From: a virus | Taxonomy: Duplodnaviria > Heunggongvirae > Uroviricota > Caudoviricetes | DNA length: 37,142 nucleotides | Strand: one strand, 5' to 3' | IMG/VR virus record: IMGVR_UViG_2737471867_000005 | Shown: positions 4,748 through 37,142 of the stretch, piece after piece | How positions within the stretch are numbered: the stretch's first letter is position 1 | How the letters are laid out: every line of letters starts with the position of its first letter | Notes under the pieces: model-generated | What the model saw: the letters and a program-made list of their open reading frames with translations, nothing else | What the model was told of the DNA's origin: nothing | Database searches by the model: none | Position numbers and translations under genes: made by a program

Positions 4748-7700
4748 GCGTCGTATCCCCCCTGATCGCTGTAGTTACTCCTGGCTTTTGCCTTCAGCCT
4801 GCGTTCACGTTCATCAAGCTGGCGGGCCACCTCCCGTGCAATATCCTGCGCACTTTGTCCTGGCTGCGTCTGAATGATGATCTGCGTCGGTGCCTCAATC
4901 CGGTGAATGGGCGGCACAGTGGCTGCACGACTCACCATCGCTTCGCCGCCTTTCGCGGGAAGTGCCAAAGGATGCAACGGTGGAAGCTCTGCAGGCGCGG
5001 CAGCAACGCCCATCATTCCGGCAACAACGGCAGCCAGTGCAGCTGTATTTCTCCGGCTGGTCACATTTGCCGGGCCGTTAACAATTTCCGGCCCGTTTTC
5101 ACCGACGATGCCAAACTGCCCGCGCGGGATATAGCCGCCGCTGTCATACATCCCCGCAAAGCCATATCCCCATGACGGAAAACCACCCGATGGCATCATC
5201 ACTTTACCGTCTGCATTCACCGTCGCAGGTTGCTGACGCGTCACTCTTTCCGGCAGTTTCGCCTTTGCAGCCTCTTTACTGACAATGCCGAGTTTCTCCA
5301 GCAACCAGGAAACGCCGGATTTCAGGGAGTCCAGCGGATGCATGACCATATTTAGCCCTTCCGCCAGTGCCTCCCCGAATCGTCGCCCCATTGCCGCTGC
5401 GCTCTGCAGTTCGGCAGAGGTCGACTTAACGGGCGTCAGCAGATCAGTAAACCAGCCCCACAACGCCTGCACTTTGTCGCCAATCCACTGAAACACAGGC
5501 TTAAGCGGTTCGAATGCTGCACTGATGGGACCTGCCGCCGCGTTGAATCCTTCCACCACACCAGCGAGAAATGCGGTGATGGGTTGCCAGTATTTCCAGA
5601 CAACCAGCGCCACGCCCGCCAGTGCAGTAACCACAAGACCTATCGGACTGAGCAGAGCACCTAACAGACCAGATACGGCATACAGGGCAACGCGCAGCAT
5701 CGCCAGCGGACCGGATGCCAGTACTCGCAGCACCGCGCCTGCGGCAGCCAGTCCACCGCGTAGTGCTGCCAGTGGATTCATAAACATCACAGCAACAGCA
5801 CGTAAACCGGATAATCCAGACCGCAACAGTGCAACCGGCACACCTGCTACAGTTTTCAGGACATTCCCCGTCAGTGATGCCGTGCGGCGCAAAGACGACA
5901 ACGGCGCAGTAAGTAAACCCGCTGCGTTGCCCGATGAAGCAAGCCCGCGTCGCAGCAGTGCCAGTGGAGCGCCAGCCAGCCAGGACAACGCGCTGCTGGT
6001 TCGTGTTACTGCTGCCGTAACGGAAGGTAACGTTTTGATACCCAGCACAGAGAATCCCAGACGGATGACTGCCAGCGGCCCCAGCACTGCAGCCAGCGCC
6101 ACCGCTAAGGTGCCGAGGCCTACGGTAACCGCAGCCACAACAGCCGCTACTTTCATCAGTGTGCCTGTCAGTTCCGGGTTAGCTTCCACCCAGCGGCGCA
6201 ACGCCCCCGTGATGCTTTTTACCGTGTACAGAATATCCATCAGCGGCTGGCGCAGCGTTTCGCCCAGGCTGCTGAAGGTGTTCTGCGCTCCGGTTTTGAC
6301 CAGCAACCACTGCGCAGAAAGTGAGTCTTTGTTGATGTCGGATTCTTTCTGCATGGAACCGAGCGCATCATTGCCCGCAGTCAGTTTTAGCTGGCGCTGC
6401 AGTTCCGGAAGGTTGTTTGCCAGTTTCGCCGCGTCATCACCAAACTCTTTACCAAACAACATGGTCATGGCAGACAGACGCTTGTCCTGCGGCAGTGCGT
6501 TCACCTTCTCCAACACACGCTGGATAGTTCCCATCGCATCCTTCGTCATCTGCTTTTCAATCACTTCAGGATTGAGTTTCAGCAGATTCATCCCTTCAAA
6601 GAAACTCTTGCTTTGCATGGTGGCAATGGACAATTCACGCACCATCGCGTTTGCTGCACTGGCTGCAACCTCCGGCGCAGCGCCCAGTGTCAGAAAGGTG
6701 GAACCCAGTGCCGCCGCTTTACGATAATCCAGACGGTCAGCCACACCGCCCAGACGTTGCATCACATCAATGATGTCCGCCCCTTTCGACATGGCGTTAT
6801 CATCCAGATAGTTCAGCGCATCGCCGAGCTGTTCAATATTGCGGGTAGGTATTTTGTAGAGCTGGGCGATTTTCCCCAGACTTTCTGACAGTTCATCCGC
6901 TGGCAGCTCAAAGGCTGTTGCCGCCTTTGCTGCCGTACTGGCGAAGGCCAGCAGGTCACGTTTCTGGTCTTCCCAGCTGTCGTCAGGGTTTGCGACGTTC
7001 ATGCGCGCACCACCTTCAACCAGTGCAGCGAAGTCCACCGCACCGTTTTCCATCGGCAACTGTTCGCTGGCAGCCTTGATGGCATCCTGCATTTCATAAA
7101 AACGTGCAGTGCGGTTGCCATTATCGTCACGCAGACCATTGACCTGCTTTGCCACACCTTTCATGGCATCTTCCATGCTGGTATAGCTTTTTACTGCCGC
7201 CATCACTGGCGCACCCATTGCCAGCCCTGCAGCCGTGGTAGTGGCTCCGGCTCCTGCGATGCGATCGCGCACCTCCAGTGAACGGGCATAACTGGCACGC
7301 GCTGCATTCATCCGGCGCTGAGCTTCCCCCAGTCGCTTCAGCCGCGCCTCCTGTTTCGACAGTTCCTGGTTATAACGTGATGCTTCACGGGCTAAACGGG
7401 CAGTTGCTCCCGCATCATCTTTCGCAGAAATTCCCGCCCGGTACAGTTCTGCACGCACAAGCGCCGTTTGCTGCTGCAGCTTTTTCTGGCGTTCTTCCAG
7501 GCGCTGAACAGCCAGCCGTTGACGGCCCAGAGCAACAACCTGACGTTGCGAAGGCGGCCCCATCGCTCCCAGTTCCTGACTGAGCAAATTTGCACGCTGG
7601 CGGGCATAGTTCAGCCTGTCGCCTAATTTCTGATTTTCTGCCTGCAGCTTTCGGAAGCTGTCCAGACTGCTCCCGGCCTGATCAAGCTGCTTTATTGCAT

Positions 7701-7821
7701 CGCGGGATTTTTTGACAGCAGCAGCCAGTTCTCTTGAACTGGCCTGCGCAGATCGAAATGGGCGGGTGAGCTTGTCAACCGCATTAAGAATGACCTGCAG
7801 ACGCAGGTTGTTATCACTCAT
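4744..7821 (-). CDS. T: tail tape measure protein
   Basis: 1025-aa protein with a coiled-coil N-terminal half and a Gly/Ala-rich hydrophobic central region; sits after E/E'. Confidence 0.9.
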   Translation of the reverse strand: MSDNNLRLQVILNAVDKLTRPFRSAQASSRELAAAVKKSRDAIKQLDQAGSSLDSFRKLQAENQKLGDRLNYARQRANLLSQELGAMGPPSQRQVVALGRQRLAVQRLEERQKKLQQQTALVRAELYRAGISAKDDAGATARLAREASRYNQELSKQEARLKRLGEAQRRMNAARASYARSLEVRDRIAGAGATTTAAGLAMGAPVMAAVKSYTSMEDAMKGVAKQVNGLRDDNGNRTARFYEMQDAIKAASEQLPMENGAVDFAALVEGGARMNVANPDDSWEDQKRDLLAFASTAAKAATAFELPADELSESLGKIAQLYKIPTRNIEQLGDALNYLDDNAMSKGADIIDVMQRLGGVADRLDYRKAAALGSTFLTLGAAPEVAASAANAMVRELSIATMQSKSFFEGMNLLKLNPEVIEKQMTKDAMGTIQRVLEKVNALPQDKRLSAMTMLFGKEFGDDAAKLANNLPELQRQLKLTAGNDALGSMQKESDINKDSLSAQWLLVKTGAQNTFSSLGETLRQPLMDILYTVKSITGALRRWVEANPELTGTLMKVAAVVAAVTVGLGTLAVALAAVLGPLAVIRLGFSVLGIKTLPSVTAAVTRTSSALSWLAGAPLALLRRGLASSGNAAGLLTAPLSSLRRTASLTGNVLKTVAGVPVALLRSGLSGLRAVAVMFMNPLAALRGGLAAAGAVLRVLASGPLAMLRVALYAVSGLLGALLSPIGLVVTALAGVALVVWKYWQPITAFLAGVVEGFNAAAGPISAAFEPLKPVFQWIGDKVQALWGWFTDLLTPVKSTSAELQSAAAMGRRFGEALAEGLNMVMHPLDSLKSGVSWLLEKLGIVSKEAAKAKLPERVTRQQPATVNADGKVMMPSGGFPSWGYGFAGMYDSGGYIPRGQFGIVGENGPEIVNGPANVTSRRNTAALAAVVAGMMGVAAAPAELPPLHPLALPAKGGEAMVSRAATVPPIHRIEAPTQIIIQTQPGQSAQDIAREVARQLDERERRLKAKARSNYSDQGGYDA

Positions 7822-8250
7822 CGTTGGCCCCGCTTCTCTGAATCGCTTTATACCGCCATTCCAGCACTTCGGTCAGCGGCATAACGTCAGTAACGGATGG
7901 CGGCCAGTGAAAAATGGTGGCGATATCTGCCACCAGATCGTCAACCGTCAGGTTGTCGGTAAACCGGCAAGCACCGACTTCTTCAACAAAAAAGTGACAA
8001 CCTCAACCGACATGGCAGTGAGATCTGCCGGGTCCATCTCTGCAATTTCCTGTGCAGTCAGTGCCGGACTGGAGATGCGGGGGATCACGGTCATCATCGC
8101 GTTTACATCCATATCCATAATGGCCTGCAGGCGTGTACCGCGCAGCGCACCGGACTGCGGTTTACGCAGCACAATTTCGGTGATTTCTGTTTTACCGCGC
8201 TTGATGGGGGTATCCAGTTGAATGGTCTTTTCAGTCTGCTTATCGCTCAT
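7814..8250 (-). CDS. E': tail assembly chaperone E+E' (programmed -1 frameshift product)
   Basis: Slippery heptamer T_TTT_TTG on the minus strand (plus 7987..7993) near the end of E. The -1 frame stays open to a TGA at 7814..7816 that overlaps the T start codon. Confidence 0.75.
7948..8250 (-). CDS. E: tail assembly chaperone E
   Basis: 100-aa ORF immediately upstream of T; ends VVTFLLKKSVLAGLPTT. Confidence 0.85.
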   Translation of the reverse strand: MSDKQTEKTIQLDTPIKRGKTEITEIVLRKPQSGALRGTRLQAIMDMDVNAMMTVIPRISSPALTAQEIAEMDPADLTAMSVEVVTFLLKKSVLAGLPTT

Positions 8251-8304
8251 TTTGCTGTCCTGTCAATTGGGTTCTGGCGCAGTATCCCGCGCCGTTCAGA
8301 TATA

Positions 8305-8820
8305 TCAGAGGCCGAGGGCGTTGCGGTGCGCTTCCATCAGGTCCACACCGTCCACAATTTCCACCATGTTGATAAGGTCCACTTCATAGAGCACCTCACC
8401 ATTGATGGTCAGCTTCGCGTAGCTGTTGGTACTGGTCACTTTGGTGGTGTTGCTTTCGCCCGTCTTCCACTCGCCGGAATCCACTTCTTTGTGACGTCCA
8501 CGCACGACAAGCTCCACGGCCTGCACTTCCCCGGTATCGTCACGCTGAATAGAGCCGGTAAAGCGCAGCTGGATGCCATCCACCGTGGCTTTACCCATCT
8601 GTTTAAACAGCAGCAATTCAGTACCACCAATGGAAAATTCTGTGTCCAGCGCACTGTCATCAAGCCCCAGATCCACATCCACCGCACCCGGCATTCCGCC
8701 GCCGCGATACTTCTCATATTTGCGGGTAAATTTCGGCAGCGTCAGCGACTCAACGATCCCCTGCCAGTTGTTCCCGTCGTTAAACAGGTTCAGGTGTTTT
8801 AATTTGCGTGGTAAAGCCAT
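8305..8820 (-). CDS. FII: tail tube protein FII
   Basis: 171-aa ORF in P2 order downstream of FI. Confidence 0.88.
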   Translation of the reverse strand: MALPRKLKHLNLFNDGNNWQGIVESLTLPKFTRKYEKYRGGGMPGAVDVDLGLDDSALDTEFSIGGTELLLFKQMGKATVDGIQLRFTGSIQRDDTGEVQAVELVVRGRHKEVDSGEWKTGESNTTKVTSTNSYAKLTINGEVLYEVDLINMVEIVDGVDLMEAHRNALGL

Positions 8821-21804: not shown

Positions 21805-23571
21805 ATGAACACCACACTGACACCCGCAGATCTCGATCCCCGTCGGCAGGCCATGCTGCTGTACTTTCAGGGATACCGCGTAGCCCGCATTGCTGAAATG
21901 CTGGGCGAGAAAGTTGCAACCGTTCACAGCTGGAAAAAACGCGACAAGTGGGGTGACTATGGGCCGCTGGATCAGATGCAGCTCACCACCGCCGCACGCT
22001 ACTGCCAGCTCATTATGAAGGAGCACAAAGAAGGGAAAGATTTCAAAGAGATTGACCTGCTGGCGCGCCAGTCGGAGCGCCATGCGCGGATCGGCAAGTT
22101 TAACAATGGCGGCAACGAAGCCGACTTAAACCCTAACGTCGCCAACCGCAACAAAGGCCCACGCCGTCAGCCGGAAAAGAACGTTTTCACCGATGAACAG
22201 ATTGAGAAGCTGGAAGAAATTTTCCATTCCTCCATGTTCAACTACCAGCGCCACTGGTGGGAAGCCGGAAAAACCAACCGCATCCGCAACCTGCTGAAGT
22301 CACGCCAGATCGGCGCGACCTTTTACTTTGCCCGTGAAGCCCTGATTGACGCCCTGCTTACCGGACGTAACCAGATTTTCCTTTCCGCCAGTAAGGCACA
22401 GGCCCACGTCTTTAAACAGTACATCATCGACTTCGCCAAAGAAGTAGAGGTGGAGCTGAAAGGCGATCCGATGGTGCTTCCCAACGGGGCCACACTGTAT
22501 TTCCTCGGCACCAATGCCCGCACGGCCCAGAGTTATCACGGCAACCTGTATCTGGATGAATATTTCTGGATACCGAAATTTCAGGAGCTGCGCAAAGTGG
22601 CTTCCGGTATGGCTATTCACAAAAAATGGCGACAAACCTATTTTTCCACGCCATCCAGTCTGACACACAGTGCTTATCCGTTCTGGTCCGGTGCGCTGTT
22701 CAACCGTGGGCGCAACAAAGCCGATAAGGTGGACATCGACCTGTCCCACAGCAATCTGGCCCCCGGCCTGCTGTGCGCAGACGGGCAATACCGCCAGATA
22801 GTCACCGTGGAAGATGCGGTACGCGGCGGCTGTAACCTGTTCGACCTCGACCAGCTACGCATGGAGTACAGCCCGGATGAATACCAGAACCTGCTGATGT
22901 GCGAGTTTGTGGACGATCTCGCGTCCGTGTTTCCGCTCAGCGAGCTGCAGGCGTGCATGGTGGACAGTTGGGAAGTCTGGACCGACTTTCATGCACTGGC
23001 GCTGCGCCCGTTTGGCTGGCGCGAAGTGTGGATCGGTTATGACCCGGCAAAAGGCACGCAAAACGGCGACAGCGCCGGATGCGTGGTGGTGGCACCGCCA
23101 GCCGTGCCGGGTGGTAAGTTCCGCATTCTTGAGCGTCACCAGTGGCGCGGGATGGACTTCCGCGCCCAGGCTGACGCCATCAAAAAACTGACCGAACAGT
23201 ACAACGTGACCTATATCGGTATCGACTCAACCGGCGTTGGTCACGGGGTTTACGAGAACGTGAAAGCGTTTTTTCCTGCCGTCCGGGAGTTTGTCTACAA
23301 CCCCAACGTTAAAAACGCCCTGGTACTCAAGGCCTACGACATTATCAGCCACCGCCGTCTGGAGTTTGACGCCGGACACACCGACATAGCGCAGTCCTTT
23401 ATGGCAATCCGTCGCGCCACCACCGCCAGTGGCAACCGCCCGACCTATGAAGCCAGCCGCAGCGAAGAAGCCAGCCACGCCGATCTGGCCTGGGCAACGA
23501 TGCACGCACTGTTTAACGAACCGCTGCAGGGCGAATCCGCCAATACCAGCAATATTGTGGAGATTTTTTGA
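21805..23571 (+). CDS. P: terminase large (ATPase) subunit P
   Basis: 588-aa ORF. Confidence 0.9.
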   Translation: MNTTLTPADLDPRRQAMLLYFQGYRVARIAEMLGEKVATVHSWKKRDKWGDYGPLDQMQLTTAARYCQLIMKEHKEGKDFKEIDLLARQSERHARIGKFNNGGNEADLNPNVANRNKGPRRQPEKNVFTDEQIEKLEEIFHSSMFNYQRHWWEAGKTNRIRNLLKSRQIGATFYFAREALIDALLTGRNQIFLSASKAQAHVFKQYIIDFAKEVEVELKGDPMVLPNGATLYFLGTNARTAQSYHGNLYLDEYFWIPKFQELRKVASGMAIHKKWRQTYFSTPSSLTHSAYPFWSGALFNRGRNKADKVDIDLSHSNLAPGLLCADGQYRQIVTVEDAVRGGCNLFDLDQLRMEYSPDEYQNLLMCEFVDDLASVFPLSELQACMVDSWEVWTDFHALALRPFGWREVWIGYDPAKGTQNGDSAGCVVVAPPAVPGGKFRILERHQWRGMDFRAQADAIKKLTEQYNVTYIGIDSTGVGHGVYENVKAFFPAVREFVYNPNVKNALVLKAYDIISHRRLEFDAGHTDIAQSFMAIRRATTASGNRPTYEASRSEEASHADLAWATMHALFNEPLQGESANTSNIVEIF

Positions 23572-24599
23572 TGGGAAAGAGTAAGAAGAACCGCGCTGCG
23601 GCGACGAAACAGATCCAGCTTAAAAGTCAAACTACAGCCGAAGCATTCAGCTTCGGCGATCCCGTTCCTGTTCTGGACCGCCGAGAACTGCTGGATTATG
23701 TGGAATGCGTACAGATGGACCGCTGGTATGAGCCGCCCGTCAGCTTTGACGGACTGGCGCGCACCTTCCGCGCTGCCGTGCATCATAGTTCCCCGATTGC
23801 AGTAAAGTGCAACATTCTGACCAGCACCTACATCCCTCACCCGCTGCTCAGCCAGCAGGCTTTTTCGCGTTTTGTTCAGGACTATCTGGTATTTGGTAAC
23901 GCCTACCTGGAGAAACGCACGAACCGCTTCGGTGAAGTTATCGCCCTTGAACCTGCCCTGGCAAAATACACCCGACGCGGGTTAGACCTGGATACCTACT
24001 GGTTTGTGCAATACGGTATGACCACGCAGCCATATCAGTTCACGAAAGGCAGCATCTTTCATCTGATGGAACCGGACATCAACCAGGAGATCTACGGCCT
24101 GCCCGGTTATCTTTCTGCCATTCCGTCAGCCCTGCTCAACGAGTCCGCCACGCTGTTCCGCCGAAAGTATTACATTAACGGCAGTCATGCTGGCTTCATC
24201 ATGTACATGACCGATGCCGCGCAGAACCAGGAGGACGTGAACAACCTCCGCAATGCGATGAAAAGCGCCAAAGGCCCTGGCAACTTCCGCAACCTGTTTA
24301 TGTACTCGCCTAACGGCAAAAAGGACGGGCTTCAGATTATTCCTCTGTCAGAAGTCGCGGCAAAGGATGAATTTTTGAATATCAAGAACGTGAGCCGGGA
24401 TGACATGATGGCAGCACACCGAGTGCCGCCGCAAATGATGGGGATAATACCGAATAATGTTGGGGGATTTGGGGATGTGGAGAAGGCTAGTAAGGTTTTT
24501 ATGCGTAATGAATTGATACCGCTACAAAACAGAATAGAAGAACTCAATAAATGGCTCAAAGATGACATAATAAAATTCATGCCATACAGTTTCATATAA
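23568..24599 (+). CDS. Q: portal protein Q
   Basis: 343-aa ORF; the last ~50 codons change to AT-rich codon usage. Confidence 0.88.
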   Translation: MMGKSKKNRAAATKQIQLKSQTTAEAFSFGDPVPVLDRRELLDYVECVQMDRWYEPPVSFDGLARTFRAAVHHSSPIAVKCNILTSTYIPHPLLSQQAFSRFVQDYLVFGNAYLEKRTNRFGEVIALEPALAKYTRRGLDLDTYWFVQYGMTTQPYQFTKGSIFHLMEPDINQEIYGLPGYLSAIPSALLNESATLFRRKYYINGSHAGFIMYMTDAAQNQEDVNNLRNAMKSAKGPGNFRNLFMYSPNGKKDGLQIIPLSEVAAKDEFLNIKNVSRDDMMAAHRVPPQMMGIIPNNVGGFGDVEKASKVFMRNELIPLQNRIEELNKWLKDDIIKFMPYSFI

Positions 24600-24630: not shown

Positions 24631-26304
24631 TTAAGATTTATGGCTAAAGAGTATACCTGTAACAGAACGTTGATAGGCATCAAGCTTCTCTTGCCTCTGC
24701 TTAAATTTAGATTTGATATCACTAATACTCGGAATACCTATTACTCCAAGGCCTGCACTTAACGCCGCTAAAGTAGTATTGCCAGTCAGCGCTCCAGCAA
24801 TTGCTATAGCACCATTTGCGATACATGGTAGGACATCCAGTCCGTAAATTCTCAATTTCTCTTTTTGGGCTTTTGCAAGAATCCTTTGATGTTCAATAAA
24901 AGCCCGGTCTACATTATCAATTACTTTTTGCGTTGTCCTCGAAAAGCTCTCTGCCGAAGAATTGATTAAAGAGTCAACACCATTTGATAAGATGGATCTT
25001 ACATCCTCCATCAATTTGTTACGTCTCAACTCAATTATTTTATTGACCGGTACATTTCCTAACCATGAAAAACCATCTTGCATACCAGCAGATAACGCAT
25101 GAACCATATGCAAATTTTTTAGTTCAATATCATTGACATCAAAATTAAGAGATTCGTACTCAATAAGCCAAGTATAATAGAGCCAAGATGTGTCTGCATT
25201 TATATATGGAGTACTACCAAGTTCTTGTGCATTACATTTTGCTGAATAGGCTTGCGGCATTCTTCCAATGCAGGAAAGGAAAACCTCCATTCCAGCATAA
25301 TCACCAACAACATTACGTGATATTCTTTTTTTATCAGATAGTAGTTTTTCTAATTGAGTTTTTGGATTTAGCCCCCATGCTGTATCAAAAATAAGTCTAT
25401 CTGCTCTCTTAATATTTTTAAGAACAGCATCAATATCATTCATCGAATAACTAAAATCTTGAAATTCATCGTAGCTTTCGAACCGTCGATCATAGAGATA
25501 TTGCGCATGAGTCAGAGCATAAGGCTCACAAAAACTCATCAAATTTTTTTTGCTCTCAGTTTCAAAATCTCTTCTATCCGGCAAAATTAATACTATTGCT
25601 GGCTCTATATCTTCAAGCGCTACTTCTTTATATGTCATACATGTTAGGACATGCTTCAGAAGTATCCTTGTAAACTCAGCCTTATCTGACTTTTCATAGA
25701 GACGACCGACTCTTAATATAGGACATGGAAGTGAAATAGTATCAACATACAACCCTGCAATAGAGACAGCATTCTCATCAAATGCAGGAAATAAGTCACC
25801 AGAAAAATTAGCTTTAAACTGAGAACCATCCTGCAAATGTATTACACCAATATCGGATGTTACCTGCCAAAACTCTATTACCTGATTATATAACTCAGGA
25901 AAAATACCTTCTATTTGCTTAACATATTCTTCTTGTTGAGAAAAAAAACTTGATGCTTTATGTGGCGTTGCATTAGTTTTTTTCATCAGATAAAACAACT
26001 CGCCAAAATTACTAAAAAGAATATTAAAGTAAGAACTTTGCAAGTCCTGAATAGAGTATTTGTTTTTTATATCTTCTCTTTCTAAAAAGTGATTAACCGC
26101 TGCTCCCATAGCCCTTATTCTGCCATCAACAGTAGAAGGGTCAACTTTACCATCCTGTCGCAGACTTATTCTTTTAAAACTTTCAATAAAACCTTCTACA
26201 AGATGATGAGCTATTTTTAGTTTTCCCGCTTCCAGTTGTTGCTTAATGAGAAAAACACGCTCAGTTAAATCGTCTACATATTCCTCATCTTGATATTTTT
26301 CCAT
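24631..26304 (-). CDS. uncharacterised 557-aa accessory protein with C-terminal glycine-zipper membrane segment
   Basis: Long AT-rich ORF with a GGAG RBS. C-terminal GAIAIAGALTG...LSAGLGVIGIP is hydrophobic and Gly-rich; no motif I can assign. Confidence 0.75.
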   Translation of the reverse strand: MEKYQDEEYVDDLTERVFLIKQQLEAGKLKIAHHLVEGFIESFKRISLRQDGKVDPSTVDGRIRAMGAAVNHFLEREDIKNKYSIQDLQSSYFNILFSNFGELFYLMKKTNATPHKASSFFSQQEEYVKQIEGIFPELYNQVIEFWQVTSDIGVIHLQDGSQFKANFSGDLFPAFDENAVSIAGLYVDTISLPCPILRVGRLYEKSDKAEFTRILLKHVLTCMTYKEVALEDIEPAIVLILPDRRDFETESKKNLMSFCEPYALTHAQYLYDRRFESYDEFQDFSYSMNDIDAVLKNIKRADRLIFDTAWGLNPKTQLEKLLSDKKRISRNVVGDYAGMEVFLSCIGRMPQAYSAKCNAQELGSTPYINADTSWLYYTWLIEYESLNFDVNDIELKNLHMVHALSAGMQDGFSWLGNVPVNKIIELRRNKLMEDVRSILSNGVDSLINSSAESFSRTTQKVIDNVDRAFIEHQRILAKAQKEKLRIYGLDVLPCIANGAIAIAGALTGNTTLAALSAGLGVIGIPSISDIKSKFKQRQEKLDAYQRSVTGILFSHKS

Positions 26305-26405
26305 AAACGCTCCATTAAAATATTTAATAATGCATATAAGAATAATTAATAATATTTACAGTAACTATATCACATTAGATCCAGATTGTTACACTGTTGC
26401 GCGCG

Positions 26406-26424
26406 CTCGTATCCCCGCCACGCC
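26406..26424. other. cos-like site (cohesive-end core)
   Basis: Minus-strand GGCGTGGCGGGGATACGAG matches the first 13 nt of the P2/186 cohesive end as I recall it (GGCGTGGCGGGGAAAGCAT), followed by GCGCGC. Confidence 0.55.
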
Positions 26425-26624
26425 TGCCCACTTTATGTAGTGGTTTTCATGCACCTGCATGACATAAGCAAAAGCACGCCAGTTCTGGCTGGCATCAGCG
26501 AAAACGATCGTCATACTATCATGCGATCTCATGCGCCATATGAAGTTTTCCTGACACAGCCTTGGGTTGGGATAACACCTAACTCAGGAAGATTTTTTGT
26601 GTGTTTGTAACCCACACCTAGAGT

Positions 26625-27794
26625 TTACCAATCCATGTTTGCGGCATTATCCATCTCACGAGTTAAGTAATTAACAAATAAGTCCATATTCCTTTCTGAT
26701 TTCATCGCCTCCGCATAGGTTCCATTAGTTACGTAAGATAGTATTAAAGGACATCCAGATTCAATATAAATTTTTGCTGGGGACAGTTCTCCCTGCCACA
26801 AATTTTCAAGGAAATCGTTAATTAATTGCATTGCTTCAGGTGCCAAAAAATGCACACCATTTCCAAACTTGAAACGTTCTTTATTTTCTCGATGAGGCAG
26901 CAATAGTGGCACAGCCCCTACACTTGAGTGAAATTCCAATGCTTGCCCATCCTTACCGAAGGCGCCATGGGCTACAAAATTACGCACCTGTTTTCTGAGT
27001 ATAAGTAAACGATCATAGAACAATTTTAGGCTGGAAGAGTTAATATCAATGGCTAATTTGAATTTCTCCCCCCATTCTTTTCCAACTTTATCAGCCACAT
27101 CATTCCCATTTTTTATCTCACCCTTCAAGATTGCAATAAGAATGAAAACATGCTCGGTCCAATTGAAAAATGACTCAATTGCAGACGTTGCTAACCACAT
27201 AGCCTCTCTTCGGAGTTCAATTATCTTATTTGATTGTTCAAAAGTGGATTGTAACAGGCTGAAAAAATTATCAGACTTAAACTCACTATCAACTTCCAGT
27301 TTAGACTCTTGGCCAGCAGCAACTTCATCAAGCTTCTGTTTATATAGCTCTAAAAAATAGCAAAACCTATCATAAAGAGAATTAGCATTGTTATTAACAT
27401 TTAGATTTGAAGTCTTTGCTGCATTGTCTGCAAGCGAATCAAAAAAATTCGTAGCAGCTTTAACCCCTGCGCAAATATGTCTCAAAACAGTTTTAGCTTG
27501 CTCTATATCATCATCACTCTTGATAAATATATCTAAACCAAGTTTACGATGTTCTATAATTACGACAGTCCCATCAATCCGGACTGGGATAGAAAAAGAA
27601 ATCTTCTCATCAACCCCACGATTTTTAAATTTCAGTAAATCTACCAAAAGAAAATAAACGAGATAATACGGAGGTAATGAGTCTCCCAAACCCGAGCGCT
27701 TACCCCAAAAATATTCATCAAGCTCGGCAGACTCCATTGTCCCTATGACTCTTCGGACGCGTTCTTCAACTTTAGCCAGATCCATTCCCCACAC
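26625..27794 (-). CDS. uncharacterised 389-aa accessory protein with HEPN-like R-x4-H motif
   Basis: AT-rich ORF; RNFVAH motif at plus 26967..26984. Start uncertain (GTG at 27794 or ATG at 27785). Confidence 0.7.
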   Translation of the reverse strand: MWGMDLAKVEERVRRVIGTMESAELDEYFWGKRSGLGDSLPPYYLVYFLLVDLLKFKNRGVDEKISFSIPVRIDGTVVIIEHRKLGLDIFIKSDDDIEQAKTVLRHICAGVKAATNFFDSLADNAAKTSNLNVNNNANSLYDRFCYFLELYKQKLDEVAAGQESKLEVDSEFKSDNFFSLLQSTFEQSNKIIELRREAMWLATSAIESFFNWTEHVFILIAILKGEIKNGNDVADKVGKEWGEKFKLAIDINSSSLKLFYDRLLILRKQVRNFVAHGAFGKDGQALEFHSSVGAVPLLLPHRENKERFKFGNGVHFLAPEAMQLINDFLENLWQGELSPAKIYIESGCPLILSYVTNGTYAEAMKSERNMDLFVNYLTREMDNAANMDW

Positions 27795-27955
27795 CGCCTT
27801 TCAATATCACTTAAGGTATTACAGCCAATGACATCGATTAAATACAGCGTAGATAATAGGCAACTTGCTACTGTTTTCAAGGGCTTTCTGTTTCAATCCT
27901 TAGTTGACCTTGCTGACGCGAGAATCTAGTTCTCACGCCAGCAACGCCCCTGCTG

Positions 27956-28144
27956 CTAACCGAGAAGATCCATTACACGGTTATATTCATGGGCACGAAT
28001 TTTCGCCATCAACTCATCAGTCAGCTCTGAAACCCACTGCAGAGCCAGCCCCTTCTCTTCATCACTACACTCACTAGCCGCTACAAGCTTAAGAAAAAAA
28101 TCAATGCGCTGGAGCTTCAAAGACTCCAAAAAATAGTCCTGCAT
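27956..28144 (-). CDS. small hypothetical protein (62 aa)
   Basis: ATG at 28144 preceded by a perfect AGGAGG-aaaa spacer; AT-rich. Confidence 0.55.
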   Translation of the reverse strand: MQDYFLESLKLQRIDFFLKLVAASECSDEEKGLALQWVSELTDELMAKIRAHEYNRVMDLLG

Positions 28145-28297
28145 TTTTCCTCCTATGACACCACAAGCAATACTGTATGCATAACCACTGTTTATATTTA
28201 CAGTATATAATAATCTTACTGATGTAAAACGTTTTTTTACGTTCATCAGCCTGATATGCCTGGTATTATTAAGAGCACGAATTGTTAATCCGCGTAA

Positions 28298-30712
28298 TTA
28301 ATACAGGTTCCGCCACTTATCATCTTCCCACAAACGCTGGTTCCGATAGAAGATACGCAAGCCTGCTCCTGACGGAATACTGCCGCCGCGAAGGAGTAAA
28401 TCGACCTCTTTCTCGCTGCCATCAAATCCTCTGGACTTCAGCTCATAGACGAGCTGCAGTCGCTGATGGTCTGTAATTCGCTGTTTGTAGTCTTTACGCC
28501 GTTTCGGTTTAACCAGGCGTAACCTTGCTGCCAGATCCCGGCGCTCTTTTTTGCTCATACTGTGCAGGTAATCGTGCAACTCCTTGTCATCCATGCGGGT
28601 AATGTCCGTTCTGGTGTCCCCATCAGCTGATTTATCTTTCTCCTGTTGGTTCAAATTTTCAGCAAGGGGACAGTTATTGCCACGAGTCCAAGGGGCGCAA
28701 GCGCCCTGGTCGGCTGCCGCCTCCTGAACGTCAACGGCTTTACGAACCATTTTCCACTTCACTGCATGAGTGCAGATCTTGCCCTCTGCAATGGGTGACC
28801 AGATGCCATAAATACGAATGCCGTGATCGCCATAGGCGGTCGGCTCTTCGTTGATTTCATAAGCGGTTCTGATGAGGTGATATTTACGGGGAACCAGTAC
28901 GCCGCCCTGCTTCATGATGTAGGTGGCAAAACAACCAGCATCAGCAGCAGCCAAGATGGCATCAAGGCGCGGGTTATCCAGTACCGGCGCACCTGCTTTT
29001 TTGTCCCCCTGTTGCCTTGCCGCCTGACCAGCCAGCAATCGCAGTTCACGGTAAGCCTGACGCCCCGGAATGCCAAAGAAGCGGAATTGCTGAACACGAT
29101 GCAAAGACGCCCAGGCGTTCACGTATTCAGCGTTATCACGCAGAGATTTACCCGTTTCCTTGCTGATCTCGCCAGCCAGACCACGCCCGTCAATGTTCTT
29201 ACTGATGTATTTCGCTATGTAGCTTGTCGGCGTTCCTTTGCGCGGGTTAATCAGCTCAGACTTAAAGCGCGGCCCCGTGTTATTGCCCAGCTCCTCGCGG
29301 TCTTCACGGATAGCAAACTTACGCAACAATGCAGTAATGGCGCGGCGGTCTTTTTTGCGCATGAAACACAACAGGTGCCAGTGAACTGTGCCGTCGTGAT
29401 GCGGCTCAGCCACCCGCACGCCATACCAGCGCAACCCGGCTTTGTGCATCGCCTTACGAAATGCAGCAAACATACCGACCAGATAATCGCTGCTTTGTCT
29501 TACCGTCGCATTTGTCCAGGTCGGGTTGGGCCTGCCGTTATTTAGCGTGGAATGGAAACGTGACGGACAGGTGATGGTGTAGAAAACGGCGCAGTCACCG
29601 CGCATTTCCGCGATAAGCTCCAGACCTTTAACACAGGCCATCATCTCATTGCGGCGATGCGCAGGGTTGCTGCTGCTGGCGTTTACCACATCCTCCATGT
29701 CCAGCGTGTCGCCGTCTTCGTTCACCAGTTCATGAGAACGGAAAAACTCCAGCGACTTACGGTGCTGCTCACGTTTATGCAACACGGCTTCATAGCTGAC
29801 ATAGGGAGATGCTTTTTTGCTGACAAGGCAGACAGCACGCAACTGCTCTTCCCGCCATTCGCAACGCATCTTCCATAATTTCCGATACCACCAGTCGGCG
29901 CACAACATACGCGCCAGCGAACCCGGAATGAGTTCATAGGGCACGGGTTTACGGCGGTTTCTTTTCCGACGGAGTTGCTCAAACGCAGGCGGGATGACAT
30001 CCAGACGCAGGGTTTCCGCTGCCACCCTTTCCCATGTATTGCGGATTTCTTCTGGCTTAACGTCATCGGTGGCATACAAATCGCCACAAGCGGCATCAAG
30101 GCACATACTCATATGCGCAGCTACCAGGGTGGACAGGCGTTTCACCTGATCCTGACTCATTTCAGGCAGGATCAGCAGGCCGTCCAGCCCTTCATGGCTT
30201 GCCATAAAGCGAAAAGATGCAGATAGCTGACTGTCGCGTACATGCTCCAGTCGTTCCAGACATGGCTTAATCGTCTCACGTAAATAGCGGGAATAAGCCT
30301 TTGGCCTGCCCAGGCTGCTGAAGTATTCAATACGTTGCATCAGCGGCTTGCTGATATGGGAAGGCTGGGCGTTGACGTCCGCCAGAATGACCATATCCGG
30401 ATTAAAACGCTGCTGCTCATGCGCCAGCTTTGCCCGACTAATGAGCTTATCCTGTTCCATTTCGCGCTGGACAGGATCACGGGATTCATTAAAGAAATAA
30501 CGCTCCCAGACCTGATCACTCAGCGCCTCACGGCGCAGCTGTTCCTGCTCGTTATCGGCAGCGTACAGAGTGATCAGGTTTGAAAGCGTAGAAACCGGCG
30601 CAACTTCCACCGTGTCCAGATAAGGGTTAATGGCCTTTTTCGGGCTGTTCCATGAGAACGATGCGGCGACCTCGTTAAAGCCGCTGCAGTTGTTCATATC
30701 AGCATGGCTCAT
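28298..30712 (-). CDS. A: rolling-circle replication initiator A
   Basis: 804-aa ORF in the P2 gene A position. Confidence 0.85.
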
Positions 30713-31566
30713 GCACGCACTCCGTACACGGCAGAACTATCCACGCCACGCGAAGGATCAAATCCCACCCAGCAGCGCGGCCCGGAAACAGCGATGATTT
30801 CTGTTGCAGATTTACTCTCACCAGCTGCCACACCGATGCTGCGTTTTGCCTTGATGTAGTGGTGAGTAAAATTGCGATATAGCGAACGGATCAGGGATGT
30901 GTCACTGTTAGAAACAATGACCGGATGTCCTTCTGATGACCGATGTTCAAGAACGGATGCCAGGTGATACTGGTCATCTTCAGTGAAACCATCAGTGTGA
31001 TAGCCGGAAAACGTACCCTCATACGGCGGATCGCAATACACCACATCCCCCACCTGCAGCATCGCCAGCGTTTCATCAAAGCTTGCGCAGATAAACGTTG
31101 CCCGCTGGGCTTTCTCTGCAAATGCGCGGATTTCTTTTTCAGGGAAATACGGATTTTTATAATTACCGTACGGAATGTTGAAATGCCCGCTCTTGTTATA
31201 GCGACATAAACCACGGTAACCGTGACGATTGAGATACAGGAAATATACCGCTTTCATGAAATCAGTAATTTCAGTTGAGTAATTAAACTCCTGCCTTATG
31301 TTGTAATAAGCCACCTCCCTGTTTGCTTCCTTAAATAAAACTCTGGCGCGAGATATAAACGATTCACAATCAGCGGCAACCTTTTTATAGAGGTTGATTA
31401 AATCAGGATTAATATCCGCAACCAGATAGCTTGGATAATCCGTCGCCATCATCACTGCACAGGAACCCGCGAAAGGTTCAACCAGTCGCGGGCCAGCAGG
31501 AAGGTGTTTTTTCAGTTCGGACATAATTGCGGTTTTATTTCCCGCCCATTTCAGGATGGTGCTCAT
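30709..31566 (-). CDS. dam: DNA adenine methyltransferase (Dam-like)
   Basis: N-terminal KWAGNK SAM-binding motif and DPPY catalytic motif; start at 31566 overlaps the upstream stop (ATGA). Confidence 0.85.
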
Positions 31567-31790
31567 ACAGCACCTCCGTTGTAATGTTTGCCTTTCAGCT
31601 CTGCGATTTCCTGACAGGTAATGCAAAGCTGCACACCTGGAATGGCGCGGCGGCGTGCTGGCGGAATTGGCGCTTCACACTCAATACAAAGCACGCGGGA
31701 CACGCCCGGCGTTTTGGCACGGGCAGCACGGATATGGCGCTGGCGTTCTTCTTCAACGCGCTGCTGTACGAGATCCATTGCATCAGCCAT
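31563..31790 (-). CDS. TraR/DksA-type C4 zinc-finger protein
   Basis: CIEC...x17...CITC spacing in a 75-aa ORF. Confidence 0.7.
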   Translation of the reverse strand: MADAMDLVQQRVEEERQRHIRAARAKTPGVSRVLCIECEAPIPPARRRAIPGVQLCITCQEIAELKGKHYNGGAV

Positions 31791-32853: not shown

Positions 32854-33363
32854 TCACAGCAAACCGAATGAAGCACCGAGGCCAGTCACGGTATCAACTG
32901 CACTCGCCATCGCAGGGTTAGCCTGTAAACGGGCCTGCAATGAAACAGCAGCCAACGCCATCAGTCGTGTTACAGAGTTAATGCTGCTGATAGCATCACG
33001 ACGACCAGCACTGGTTTTTACATCGCCAGATACCGCACCTGCAGCAACACGCCCGATCTCTGCGGTTGCACTCATGACGTAATGTGGCAGTTTCTCTTTT
33101 GCCACCTCATTAATCGGTACACATGGCAGACAATGAATCTGTGCCAGAAAACCGTCTACCAGCGTTGAATCTTCAGTCAGATCGGTAAGTAGCCAGATAT
33201 CTGGTGCGGTTAATAAATGAGGTTGAGCTGGGTTCAGCTTGTTCCGCAGAATCTGCACATTCATGCCTGCACGTTCTGCCAGTTGCACCAGGTTGTGGCG
33301 CAGTGCGAATGCACGACAGGCTTCATCAAAATGTGGATGTTTGGAAACTTGGTAATCAAACAT
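32854..33363 (-). CDS. cII: CII-like transcriptional activator (phage 186 type)
   Basis: 169 aa from [20 protein letters not shown]...; close to 186 CII as I recall it. Confidence 0.85.
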
Positions 33364-33395
33364 GGTCGACACCCCTGATGTATCCCAAAATGGAA

Positions 33396-33617
33396 CTAGT
33401 TGAATACAACATTGCAATCAGTAAGTGCATCAACGGTAAGAGCAGCAAGGTTGATCATCACCTTTTCTCTTTTCTTGTCTTTCCGAAGGCGATGCCGAGG
33501 GATGCGACCGTCAGCCAGCATATCGTTAATTGTGTCGATTGAAAGACCAGTAAGTTCGCTATAACGCTCAATTGTGACATGTGGCGTATTCAGAGTTATT
33601 GAAATGTTAGGGGTCAT
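33396..33617 (-). CDS. apl: Apl-like excisionase/repressor (HTH)
   Basis: ATG at 33617 with a GGAG RBS; [26 protein letters not shown]... Confidence 0.8.
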
Positions 33618-33712: not shown

Positions 33713-34309
33713 ATGTCAACATCAAAGTACCCAAGTGAGATCAAAATAAATCCCAATAAAGGTGGTAAGGCTGCGATTGAGCGATTAGTCGAAGCTTATG
33801 GCTTTACGACACGACAGGCTTTAGCTGATCACTTGGAAGTATCAAAAAGCACTCTGGCGAACAGGTATTTGCGGGATACGTTTCCTGCAGACTGGATAAT
33901 CCAATGTGCTCTTGAAACAGGAACCTCACTGAAATGGTTAACCACCGGGCAAGGACTTAAGCAAAGCTCGCTGACAGTAGCCACAGAAGAGCTTCCCAAG
34001 TTTCGCCTTACCGCAGGCAAAATGATTGAAGATGGTTCATATGTCTTCGATTCATCATTTCTTCCTGCAAATCTTTCATCACCAATTGTTATTCTGGATG
34101 GGCTTGTCACATACATTTGTGATCAAAAATTTTCTGAAGTACTTGATGGGCACTGGTTAATCAACATCGACGGAACCTATTCCATTCGAAAAATCACAAA
34201 GCTTCCAAAAGGTATGATTAAAATTACAACTACAGAGAATAGCTTTGAATGTGCATTTTCTGATATTGAAGTGGTTGCTTGTATAAGAAGTACAATAGTT
34301 TCAAATTGA
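33713..34309 (+). CDS. cI: CI immunity repressor (phage 186 type)
   Basis: 198-aa protein with an N-terminal HTH; position and sequence are 186 CI-like. Confidence 0.85.
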   Translation: MSTSKYPSEIKINPNKGGKAAIERLVEAYGFTTRQALADHLEVSKSTLANRYLRDTFPADWIIQCALETGTSLKWLTTGQGLKQSSLTVATEELPKFRLTAGKMIEDGSYVFDSSFLPANLSSPIVILDGLVTYICDQKFSEVLDGHWLINIDGTYSIRKITKLPKGMIKITTTENSFECAFSDIEVVACIRSTIVSN

Positions 34310-34329: not shown

Positions 34330-36006
34330 ATGAATTCATTTTCCATCGTTATATTCTTATTAGCATTTCTCGCCCCTGTTCTAGCTATAATATTATTTAA
34401 GCAAAGTAAAGAACACAAAACCGCCATAGATAACCTGACGGCTAACAACATAGCTCTTTCCAGCCAACTGAAAGAAAATCAAGAAGAATTAGCACAGACT
34501 GTACGAGATCTATCAGAGCTTGAAGGACGAGCTGCACCATTATGGCAATACGTAGAATTGCACAGCGCAGTGATGGAAGCAGAGAATAAGATAAAAAATG
34601 CAGACTCAATAGCCAGGCAAAAAATAGAAGAAGCCCAAATAAAGGCTGCTAAGACAGTAAACGAAGCAAATTATCAAGCTCAGATAACAATAAGCAACGC
34701 TAATAGCGAAGCTATAGCAATCACCAAAGACGCTCGCGATGCACGCCTGAAAGCCAAAGAACGTCTTGATAATGCCAACAGTAAAGCAAATGAGCTGATC
34801 TCAAATGCTAATGACAACGCAGTAAAAATTATTTCCGATGCAGAAGAAAGAGCAAAAGAGATTGCTGGTTCAGCATATGAAGCTAAAGAGTTTGCAGAAA
34901 AATATGAAGCAGTTGCCAAATCAATGAAAAATAAAATTGAAGGTTATGGCGATGAATGGATCATCCCTAACCGTAGTGTACTTGATGAATTGGCAGAAAA
35001 TTATGAGTTTACAGATGCAGGCAAGGAATTACAAAAAGCCAGGGAGTTAACAAAATCATTAATAAAAACTAATAAAGCAGCTTCGTGTGATTATGTTGAG
35101 CCAAACAGGCGTAATACTGCTATCAACTTTGTTTTGGATGCCTTCAATGGAAGAGTTGACAGTATTTTATCAAAAGTCAAACACAACAATTTTGGAAAAC
35201 TTTCCCAAGAAATAAAAGATGCATTTCAACTTGTAAATTATAATGGCTCTGCTTTTAAATCCGCAAAAATAAGTGACATCTATCTTCAGGCACGACTCAA
35301 CGAGCTAAAATGGGGAGTTGCAGTTAATGAAATTATGCTCAAAGAAAAAGAGGAGCAAAGAAGGATTAAAGAACAGCTTCGTGAAGAGGAAAGAGCTCGT
35401 AGAGAGTATGAAAAAGCGATAAAAGAAGCCGAAAAAGAAGAGAAAGCTATTCAGCAAGCTATAAATAAAGCGACGAAAGAGCTTATGCTTGCAAATGAAG
35501 AACAACGCTTAGCTTTAGAGCAAAAAATAGCTGAACTACAGTTAAAATATGAAGAAGCTGAAGCTAAAAACCAACGAGCTATTTCTATGGCTCAACAAAC
35601 TAGATCAGGCCATGTTTATATAATTAGCAATATTGGCTCATTTGGCGAAGATGTATATAAAATTGGAATGACACGCCGCCTTGAACCACTTGATCGTGTT
35701 CGTGAACTTGGGGATGCTAGTGTTCCTTTTTCGTTCGATGTTCATGCGATGATTTATAGTGATGATGCACCGTCATTAGAAAATCATCTGCATAAAGTCT
35801 TCAACGAAAAGCAGGTCAATAAAATTAACTCACGAAAAGAGTTTTTTAACGTAAATATTAAAGAAATTAAATCGGTTATTGAAGATATGAACATCAATGC
35901 CCACTGGACAATGTTTGCAGAGGCGAAAGAATATAGAGAGTCACTAGCTATTGAGCAGGAACGCAAAGCAGCCACTTCCGCCAACGATGAACTACATGTT
36001 GCTTAG
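34330..36006 (+). CDS. membrane-anchored coiled-coil protein with C-terminal T5orf172/GIY-YIG-like domain
   Basis: N-terminal TM helix (FSIVIFLLAFLAPVLAIILF), a long K/E/A-rich coiled coil, and a C-terminal GHVYIISN...YKIGMT motif from about 35608. AT-rich; inserted between cI and int. Confidence 0.8.
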   Translation: MNSFSIVIFLLAFLAPVLAIILFKQSKEHKTAIDNLTANNIALSSQLKENQEELAQTVRDLSELEGRAAPLWQYVELHSAVMEAENKIKNADSIARQKIEEAQIKAAKTVNEANYQAQITISNANSEAIAITKDARDARLKAKERLDNANSKANELISNANDNAVKIISDAEERAKEIAGSAYEAKEFAEKYEAVAKSMKNKIEGYGDEWIIPNRSVLDELAENYEFTDAGKELQKARELTKSLIKTNKAASCDYVEPNRRNTAINFVLDAFNGRVDSILSKVKHNNFGKLSQEIKDAFQLVNYNGSAFKSAKISDIYLQARLNELKWGVAVNEIMLKEKEEQRRIKEQLREEERARREYEKAIKEAEKEEKAIQQAINKATKELMLANEEQRLALEQKIAELQLKYEEAEAKNQRAISMAQQTRSGHVYIISNIGSFGEDVYKIGMTRRLEPLDRVRELGDASVPFSFDVHAMIYSDDAPSLENHLHKVFNEKQVNKINSRKEFFNVNIKEIKSVIEDMNINAHWTMFAEAKEYRESLAIEQERKAATSANDELHVA

Positions 36007-36089: not shown

Positions 36090-37142
36090 ATGGCAGTACG
36101 AAAACTCACCACAGGAAAATGGCTGTGCGAATGTTATCCCGCCGGACGTAGTGGACGTCGTGTGCGTAAACAATTCGCCACCAAAGGCGAAGCTCTGGCT
36201 TTTGAGCGTCACACGATGGAAGAAACCGAAGCAAAGCCCTGGCTAGGTGAATCAGTGGATCGTCGAACACTGAAAGATGTGGTTGAGCTATGGTTCAAAC
36301 TACATGGTAAATCACTGACTGCTGGGCAGCATGTCTATGACAAATTGCTGCTGATGGTTGACGCTCTGGGCAATCCCCTTGCAACTGATCTAACCTCTAA
36401 AATGTTTGCCCACTATCGAGATAAACGCCTGACAGGCGAGATCTACTTCAGCGAGAAATGGAAGAAAGGAGCAAGCCCGGTCACCATTAACCTGGAGCAA
36501 AGCTATCTAAGTAGTGTTTTTAGCGAACTATCCCGTCTGGGCGAATGGTCGTATCCGAACCCACTGGAGAACATGCGAAAATTCACCATCGCAGAAAAAG
36601 AGATGGCATGGCTTACCCATGAGCAGATTGTTGAATTGCTGGCTGATTGCAAACGTCAGGACCCAATTCTGGCACTGGTAGTTAAGATATGCTTAAGCAC
36701 AGGCGCACGCTGGCGTGAAGCCGTAAATCTTACCCGCTCACAGGTGACCAAATACCGAATTACCTTTGTCAGAACGAAGGGGAAGAAAAACAGAAGCATC
36801 CCTATCAGTAAAGAGCTTTACGAAGAGATCATGGCGCTCGATGGGTTCAATTTCTTCACAGACTGCTATTTTCAATTTTTATCCGTGATGGAAAAAACGT
36901 CTATCGTGCTCCCTCGCGGTCAACTCACACACGTTCTGCGCCATACGTTTGCAGCGCACTTCATGATGTCGGGTGGAAACATTCTGGCCTTACAAAAAAT
37001 TCTCGGACACCACGATATAAAAATGACTATGCGTTACGCACATCTGGCACCGGATCATCTGGAAACGGCGCTCCGTTTCAATCCTCTGGCAACGCTGCCA
37101 AGTGGCGACAAAGTGGCGGCAGCGGTTGGCATTACCCCGTAA
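36090..37142 (+). CDS. int: tyrosine integrase (P2 Int family)
   Basis: 350-aa ORF with C-terminal HxLRHT and MRYAHL catalytic tyrosine region; its stop codon is the last 3 nt of the window. Confidence 0.9.
   Translation: MAVRKLTTGKWLCECYPAGRSGRRVRKQFATKGEALAFERHTMEETEAKPWLGESVDRRTLKDVVELWFKLHGKSLTAGQHVYDKLLLMVDALGNPLATDLTSKMFAHYRDKRLTGEIYFSEKWKKGASPVTINLEQSYLSSVFSELSRLGEWSYPNPLENMRKFTIAEKEMAWLTHEQIVELLADCKRQDPILALVVKICLSTGARWREAVNLTRSQVTKYRITFVRTKGKKNRSIPISKELYEEIMALDGFNFFTDCYFQFLSVMEKTSIVLPRGQLTHVLRHTFAAHFMMSGGNILALQKILGHHDIKMTMRYAHLAPDHLETALRFNPLATLPSGDKVAAAVGITP

Follow-up and report, generated by a model that had tools for sequence, protein, structure and literature searches.

Two systems come closest as working precedents for the protein described here: HepS of the Salmonella prophage Gifsy-1 (PMC13043305) and Tha, from prophages of S. 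aureus (PMC11087260). HepS is presumed to stay latent until it is triggered by a phage structural protein, after which it cleaves the anticodon loops of tRNA (PMC13043305). The HEPN-MNT toxins (SO_3166, 5yep; HI0074, 1jog; 8xdj; and 7ae2) are proteins of ∼130–140 residues that are neutralized by an adjacent MNT nucleotidyltransferase, and the lactococcal AbiA carries a polymerase domain. ApeA, from the 2020 work of Gao and colleagues, is reportedly a single-gene defense protein with a HEPN domain. In phage P2, the lysogenic-conversion genes old and tin, which exclude other phages, lie between gpA and cos; of their two distinct products, Old carries the annotation of an AAA-family ATPase and exonuclease. 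The gpA-to-gpQ interval of P2 is a hotspot for anti-phage cargo (PMC9122126).

Here, we describe a gene from the corresponding slot of a P2/186-like Escherichia coli prophage (IMG/VR record IMGVR_UViG_2737471867_000005; the window, i.e., the whole stretch of DNA analyzed, is 37,142 nt long). Its 386-aa product is probably a self-contained, single-protein HEPN ribonuclease of the abortive-infection type, carried as anti-phage cargo of the prophage, and most likely represents a new family of this known kind. Like HepS, it is prophage cargo without a partner, immunity gene, or conserved neighbors, and in both proteins an R-x4-H motif lies ∼100 residues into the HEPN domain. The HepS motif (R100–H105), however, is ∼100 residues from that protein's own N-terminus, whereas the present protein adds a conserved alpha/beta domain of 125 residues, a linker of helical structure, a conserved insert of 37 residues behind the motif, and a C-terminal extension ending in NMDW; furthermore, the HepS carrier is lambdoid and the present one P2/186-like.

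The differences from the other systems are greater. The protein is three times longer than the HEPN-MNT toxins, with no such nucleotidyltransferase partner found, and it lacks the polymerase domain of AbiA. The ApeA model of PADLOC and HEPN_Apea of Pfam (PF18739) gave no match, at E-values of up to 1 or 10, to the window protein or to the relatives P0056 and P0299; the UniRef name of P0299 looks automatic, as no profile search reproduces the label. Old and Tin share the position between gpA and cos but are unrelated to the 386-aa protein, which has no PADLOC match (the Old models included) and no ATPase or TOPRIM domain in Pfam. Membership of ApeA, the HEPN-MNT pairs, Aditi, and Old/Tin was ruled out, a defining feature of each having been looked for and found absent.

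The protein (WP_032248694.1) is not named in the text of any paper that we found, but exactly this accession is listed in Table S10 of DefensePredictor ("uncharacterized_clusters") as a "Predicted novel defense gene" (PMC13092281). Its mean log-odds of defense there is 10.6, against a strict cut-off of 4, and its best HHblits match is a Csm6/Csx1 protein (3.6% of the query, probability 56%), with no Foldseek match (PMC13092281). It is absent from the other supplementary tables searched, including the table of 94 tested units. Given the Table S10 entry, the defense prediction itself is not new; what is new here is the domain assignment, the description of the family, and the genomic dissection.

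The cargo gene and its slot in the prophage

The initial annotation had placed a 389-aa protein at positions 26625–27794. An open reading frame of that extent is present, on the minus strand (which the annotation left unsaid), and encodes 389 aa if the GTG start at 27794 is used. In E. coli strain 1283, which carries the same DNA, the identical gene starts in RefSeq at the ATG at 27785, giving a 386-aa "hypothetical protein", and M-D-L is the N-terminus shared by the aligned homologs. Because both the RefSeq start and this shared N-terminus favor the ATG, the 386-aa form and its numbering replace the longer one here. The features of the region are as follows.

23568..24599, plus strand, portal gene
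24631..26304, minus strand, 557-aa cargo gene between cos and the portal gene (PADLOC DitB, E 1.6e-10, residues 195–452; LeoBC weaker)
about 26392..26467, minus strand, cos region (alignment to the P2 cosR/cosL junction, 80% identity over 45 nt, E 7e-6)
26476..26495, minus strand, terminator-like hairpin downstream of the gene, adjoining cos (consensus scan; weak evidence)
26541..27906, no strand assigned, mobile cassette of 1,366 bp unique to the 386-aa cargo gene (blastn against the related loci L002 and L003; annotations)
26625..27785, minus strand, CDS of the 386-aa protein, stop included (ORF list, RefSeq, and 1,245 homologs of matching length)
27853..27880, minus strand, promoter-like site ∼70 nt upstream of the ATG (TTGAAA, 16-nt spacer, TATTAT; 10 of 12 matches; consensus scan)
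28298..30712, minus strand, replication endonuclease gpA
30709..31626, minus strand, Dam methylase
32854..33417, minus strand, CII/CP76-type regulator
33713..34309, plus strand, CI repressor
34330..36006, plus strand, 558-aa protein matching PD-Lambda-1 (PADLOC, E 2e-119; Pfam DUF4041 and T5orf172/MUG113)
36090..37142, plus strand, integrase

An exact or near-exact search for the 19-mer of P2 cos gave no match, and cos was found only by alignment of the whole junction; the sequence that corresponds to the cohesive end of P2, GGCGAGGCGGGGAAAGCAC, reads GGCGTGGCGGGGATACGAG here (∼26424..26406). The position of cos puts the 386-aa gene on the gpA side, where P2 has old and tin, and the assignment to the old/tin slot was thus correct, although the gene shares its direction of transcription with A, and the P2 genes run the opposite way. 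A RefSeq "hypothetical protein" of 41 aa (∼26389..26514, minus strand) spans cos and is probably spurious.

As in cargo of the P2-type hotspot, the gene forms a variable cassette that lies within the gpA–gpQ interval and adjoins cos. In related prophages the same junctions are empty or enclose a DUF2971 gene, and GC content is 35–41% across the cargo versus 52–56% in the phage core genes. The cassette occurs at ≥99.5% identity in 10 of 5,426 complete E. coli genomes; in all four that were inspected it occupies the same slot, while the cargo across cos varies, consisting of the DitB-like 557-aa gene in the window and strain 1283, a TIR-domain protein in strain S43, and a three-gene cassette with a STAS-like protein in strains 2014C-3097 and OkiPb01682. 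Promoter-like sites are no commoner in the region than in shuffled sequence, so that the site listed above is weak evidence. Taken together, the GC content, the swapping of cassettes, and the gene's own promoter- and terminator-like sites indicate a single-gene unit rather than half of a pair with its neighbor.

These comparisons bear on the notion that the gene and the adjacent 557-aa gene form a two-gene, Aditi-like system (we take the Dit of PADLOC DitB to denote Aditi). The DitB match of the neighbor would fit, as would the arrangement of the two genes on the same strand, 320 bp apart. Yet cos separates them, which places them at opposite ends of the packaged linear genome, and they travel independently: elsewhere in E. 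coli prophages the 557-aa gene stands by itself or is accompanied by a DUF2971 gene, the 386-aa gene is found with the TIR protein or the STAS cassette, and the two occur together in only one of the ten cassette-bearing genomes. Additionally, the 386-aa protein matches no PADLOC model, DitA included, and a survey of 69 other loci revealed no conserved partner. The two-gene reading is highly improbable and is effectively refuted by these comparisons of gene content.

On the gpA side of the cassette, a DinI-like gene that relatives carry between a small phrog_698 ORF and the cargo slot has been deleted (27947..27967, versus 5026..5285 in L002), leaving no more than 40 bp of the flank downstream of it (27907..27946). 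The small, conserved phage ORF itself (27956..28246, minus strand; 62 aa in RefSeq, WP_001154428.1) lies next to gpA and matches phrog_698 (E 1.6e-35); a match to a MafI immunity protein was not significant (E 0.12).

Conserved residues and predicted fold

Pfam, NCBIfam, PADLOC v2, and PHROGs hold no significant match to the 386-aa protein, in agreement with the initial annotation, which had assigned it to no specific family. In the comparison with HEPN and Abi models that it had proposed, the best curated HEPN match, Csx1_HEPN of Pfam, does lie across the motif, but it scores 14.4 bits (E 0.05) where the cut-off is 23 and was seen in only one of 34 members; no curated HEPN profile reached threshold, NCBIfam and PADLOC gave no match, and the Abi models of Pfam and PADLOC show no relation at the sequence level. 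Neither a consistent family nor a real domain fusion emerged when Pfam was run on the 34 members and on ten relatives that are divergent or longer, and profile searches of PDB sequences matched no chain significantly. The sole PDB sequence match, to phycobilisome linker proteins (35 residues, E 0.1–2, around the stretch EEKVAWSIPI), was rejected as probably due to chance; it pairs LLVDLLGF..G..EKVAWSIPI (residues ∼46–84, window ∼27534..27650, minus strand) with RLLGR..Y.EEEKIAWSIVI of CpcL and CpcG.

The motif RNFVAH, to which the initial annotation had drawn attention, is exactly where it was placed, read on the minus strand, and is the only R-x4-6-H in the protein. With 18 arginines and seven histidines, 0.32 R-x4-H and 0.96 R-x4-6-H are expected by chance against the one observed, and RNFVAH by itself therefore proves nothing. 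It is raised above chance by the conservation of R268, N269, H273, and G274 across homologs: in an alignment of 34 diverse members (A1) these four are among 47 invariant columns, and RNxxxHG is present in 195 of the 216 roughly full-length members fetched. When a subfamily at 20–25% identity is added (A3), invariance in the first sequence shrinks, besides M1, to just 14 residues, namely G83, N132, E211, W238, K241, L260, R268, N269, H273, G274, P293, Y357, M384, and D385. The conserved and structural elements of the protein are given below.

27411..27785, minus strand, N-terminal alpha/beta domain, residues 1–125, helix-helix-three strands-helix-helix (AlphaFold, pLDDT >90 there)
27288..27386, minus strand, long helix, residues 134–166, running straight into the first HEPN helix, residues 171–220 (model)
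26628..27284, minus strand, C-terminal half, residues 168–386, comprising a HEPN-like helical domain and, after it, a helical extension (model)
27150..27161, minus strand, W-T-E-H stretch, residues 209–212, in the first HEPN helix, with E211 invariant in every subfamily (A1, A3)
26967..26984, minus strand, RNFVAH, the R-x4-H motif, residues 268–273 (reverse complement of those positions)
26856..26966, minus strand, insert directly after the motif, residues 274–310, HG-x-FGK-x-G...FHS-x-GAVP...P (conserved in A1; low-confidence beta-hairpin loop)
26628..26639, minus strand, C-terminal tail N-M-D-W, the last four residues, with M384 and D385 invariant in every subfamily (A1, A3)

An asparagine after the arginine of R-x4-H is seen in many HEPN RNases. 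The family shows the superfamily feature of a conserved R-x4-6-H in which a polar residue (N, H, or D) usually comes after the arginine (here R268-N269-x3-H273), and the conserved sequence suggests E211 as a candidate third catalytic residue. From a HEPN-type active site one would expect just this persistence of R-N-x3-H-G and of an acidic residue on the long helix before it. The proposal of a HEPN-like RNase motif thus holds at the computational level, with R268, N269, H273, G274, and E211 invariant down to ∼20% identity. Two further conserved features are unusual: the post-motif insert, in which G274, F276, G277, H286, S287, G290, A291, V292, P293, and P297 are invariant in A1, and the NMDW tail.

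The AlphaFold model of the full-length protein has a pLDDT of 85 and a pTM of 0.77. The N-terminal domain carries the invariant residues R30, P38, Y40, Y41, E60, K61, R80, K81, and G83, has no Pfam and no significant PDB sequence match, and is presumed to be a sensor or regulatory part. In the model, the helices of residues 134–166 and 171–220 can be read as a hairpin that joins the two halves, while the post-motif loop has a pLDDT below 50 in both models. A Foldseek search of the full-length model against the PDB returned nothing at E <0.1 and only coiled-coil noise. The motif-bearing half, an all-alpha, up-and-down helical bundle of the HEPN type in the predicted structure, was compared with a library of 48,164 chains; leading matches are listed here with the value obtained for each.

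1wwp, hypothetical protein TTHA0636, 6.8
9fcv, Cas nuclease-crRNA complex, 6.8
8oz7, AbiA, 6.7
1jog, HI0074, 6.4
8xdj, HEPN toxin, 6.3
5yep, SO_3166 HEPN toxin, 6.3
7vti, Cas13bt3, 6.2
6aay, Cas13b, 6.1
7ae2, HEPN toxin, 6.0

MtlR, YutE, the AF0298 HEPN protein, and PspCas13b follow lower in the list. The HEPN fold of this half is supported mainly by this enrichment of HEPN proteins among the matches, and the absence of such a fold from structure prediction, which the initial annotation had named as grounds for abandoning its reading, was not what we found.

Two alternatives concern the nature of this domain. In the first, the HEPN resemblance would be due to chance, and the conserved glutamate and histidine would form some other site, such as that of a metal-dependent hydrolase with DNA, nucleotides, or something else as its substrate; we assign this a small chance of being right. 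In the second, the fold is HEPN-like but the protein is no nuclease. Some HEPN-fold proteins, e.g., MtlR, are not nucleases, and the protein could be a regulator or a binder of ligands or nucleic acids, like MtlR or the substrate-binding subunits of nucleotidyltransferases, with a role perhaps unrelated to the killing of infected cells. This is unlikely: the arginine, asparagine, histidine, and acidic residue are invariant even in very divergent members, which is not expected of an inactivated HEPN domain, and the gene's location in a defense hotspot and in defense islands, as well as its DefensePredictor score, speak for a role in defense.

Distribution and genomic neighborhoods

A word-indexed search yielded the 1,245 relatives; in an exhaustive profile search of 1.84 billion, 997 cluster representatives reached E ≤0.001. 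With one genome considered per species, the gene is present in 171 of 185,579 species, and occurs in Proteobacteria, Nitrospirota, Acidobacteriota, Chloroflexota, Cyanobacteria, Bacteroidota, Chlorobiota, Actinomycetota, and Saccharimonadales. Nearly all members are 375–400 aa long and align end to end at 38–67% identity; a few longer or truncated ones (P0124, P0188) look like products of mis-called starts or frameshifts. A branch that is 61% identical has members in Klebsiella, Enterobacter, Citrobacter, Morganella, and Serratia, and five plasmids of alpha- and beta-proteobacteria carry a homolog. By tblastn, the gene was found in none of 50,697 deposited phage genomes.

For 69 loci from other species, ORFs were called and the three genes on each side were clustered. 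No neighbor of at least 80 aa is conserved (the largest cluster comprises four loci, at varying positions), small ORFs (25–110 aa, within 450 bp) are not conserved beyond close relatives, and neither tandem repeats nor Rfam families that would suggest an RNA antitoxin occur near the gene; no antitoxin or immunity partner is thus apparent. The neighbors are heterogeneous yet rich in defense, toxin, and mobile-element genes, including RES (four loci), reverse transcriptases (three, DRT type 8), Apea-type HEPN proteins (three), UvrD/GajB (two), and Old/AriA-like ATPases (two), as well as a Mokosh MkoA-like helicase, PemK, resolvases, and integrases. In Thalassospira, the homolog comes after hipBA. 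Several homologs lie among ordinary housekeeping genes, which, like the absence from the deposited phage genomes, counts against a defense reading. The earlier suggestion of a single-gene defense protein is supported at the computational level by the absence of a conserved neighbor in the 69 loci, the independent cassette in the P2 hotspot, and the defense genes nearby in other genomes.

Among the loci examined, the Klebsiella homolog (61% identical) belongs to an integrase-bearing island, where it comes 13 bp after the hsdR of an hsdM-hsdS-hsdR operon. In this Type I R-M island of Klebsiella and relatives (L004–L009; 6001..7185, 7368..8690), the family member is followed by an unannotated gene of 332 or 440 aa and, further on, by an HNH_2/ScoMcrA-like gene and then an integrase gene, and the whole looks like a compact defense island.

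The same neighborhoods would also suit a toxin or addiction module with a role in stabilizing the island or prophage, or else a toxin with an antitoxin that escaped detection, rather than a sensor of phage: homologs lie beside hipBA, RES, and PemK toxin genes on mobile elements, and HEPN-MNT toxins are among the best structural matches. We regard this as quite unlikely, however, because no adjacent ORF of at least 25 aa is conserved, there is no repeat or known RNA nearby, and no MNT-type partner was seen, with no nucleotidyltransferase among the 25 most frequent neighbor families. A free toxin without an antidote, moreover, would not persist at 38–67% full-length identity across many phyla.

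Proposed mode of action and the other cargo

The working model is taken from HepS. As a single-protein HEPN nuclease of abortive infection, serving the prophage and, in other genomes, defense islands, the protein would be produced in the lysogen at all times, driven by its own promoter, but kept inactive, with the parts outside the HEPN domain acting as sensor or autoinhibitor. A cue from an infecting phage might then be sensed by the N-terminal domain, by the post-motif insert, or through release of the NMDW tail. E211 and R268-N269-x3-H273-G274 may constitute a metal-independent ribonuclease site, which, by analogy with other HEPN enzymes, would be completed by dimerization. Once switched on, this site would cleave RNA, with tRNA or mRNA as the likeliest targets, which would halt translation and keep the competing phage from propagating.

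A bolder version of this scheme, in which the nuclease guards itself by a previously unseen sensing module, is conceivable, although the odds are clearly against it. The N-terminal domain, the post-motif insert, and the NMDW tail, the latter two conserved but unusual, would together make up a new device for autoinhibition and trigger recognition, and the Klebsiella branch, from its place behind hsdR, would back up Type I R-M as PrrC does EcoprrI.

If the assignment to single-protein HEPN abortive-infection nucleases is confirmed, the protein would represent a widespread defense family missed by PADLOC v2, Pfam, NCBIfam, and PHROGs (∼1,000 clusters at 50% identity), and would be a further case among the few HEPN immune nucleases that act as single proteins. 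The E. coli gene, on its 1.4-kb cassette with a promoter-like site, offers a tractable case of how a HEPN enzyme without a partner stays latent and what switches it on. The gain is incremental, given that systems of this kind are well known and that the protein had already been flagged by a machine-learning screen.

The prophage holds further cargo. The 557-aa protein across cos has no match in Pfam, NCBIfam, or PHROGs. Table S10 of DefensePredictor lists a hypothetical protein of the same length (WP_000026497.1; 557 aa, 1,674 nt) with a log-odds of 14.7 and an HHblits match to Shango SngB at probability 92 (PMC13092281), which may belong to the same family. The 558-aa gene lies between the CI repressor and the integrase, and thus marks a second cargo site in the prophage. 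PD-Lambda-1, which its product matches, is a validated single-gene defense, and the prophage carries in total one known and two candidate defense genes. At the left end of the window, a host gene (935..2620, plus strand) encodes an Asp-Al_Ex family permease with TrkA_C domains, which places the left boundary of the prophage inside the window, near 2.7–3.1 kb.
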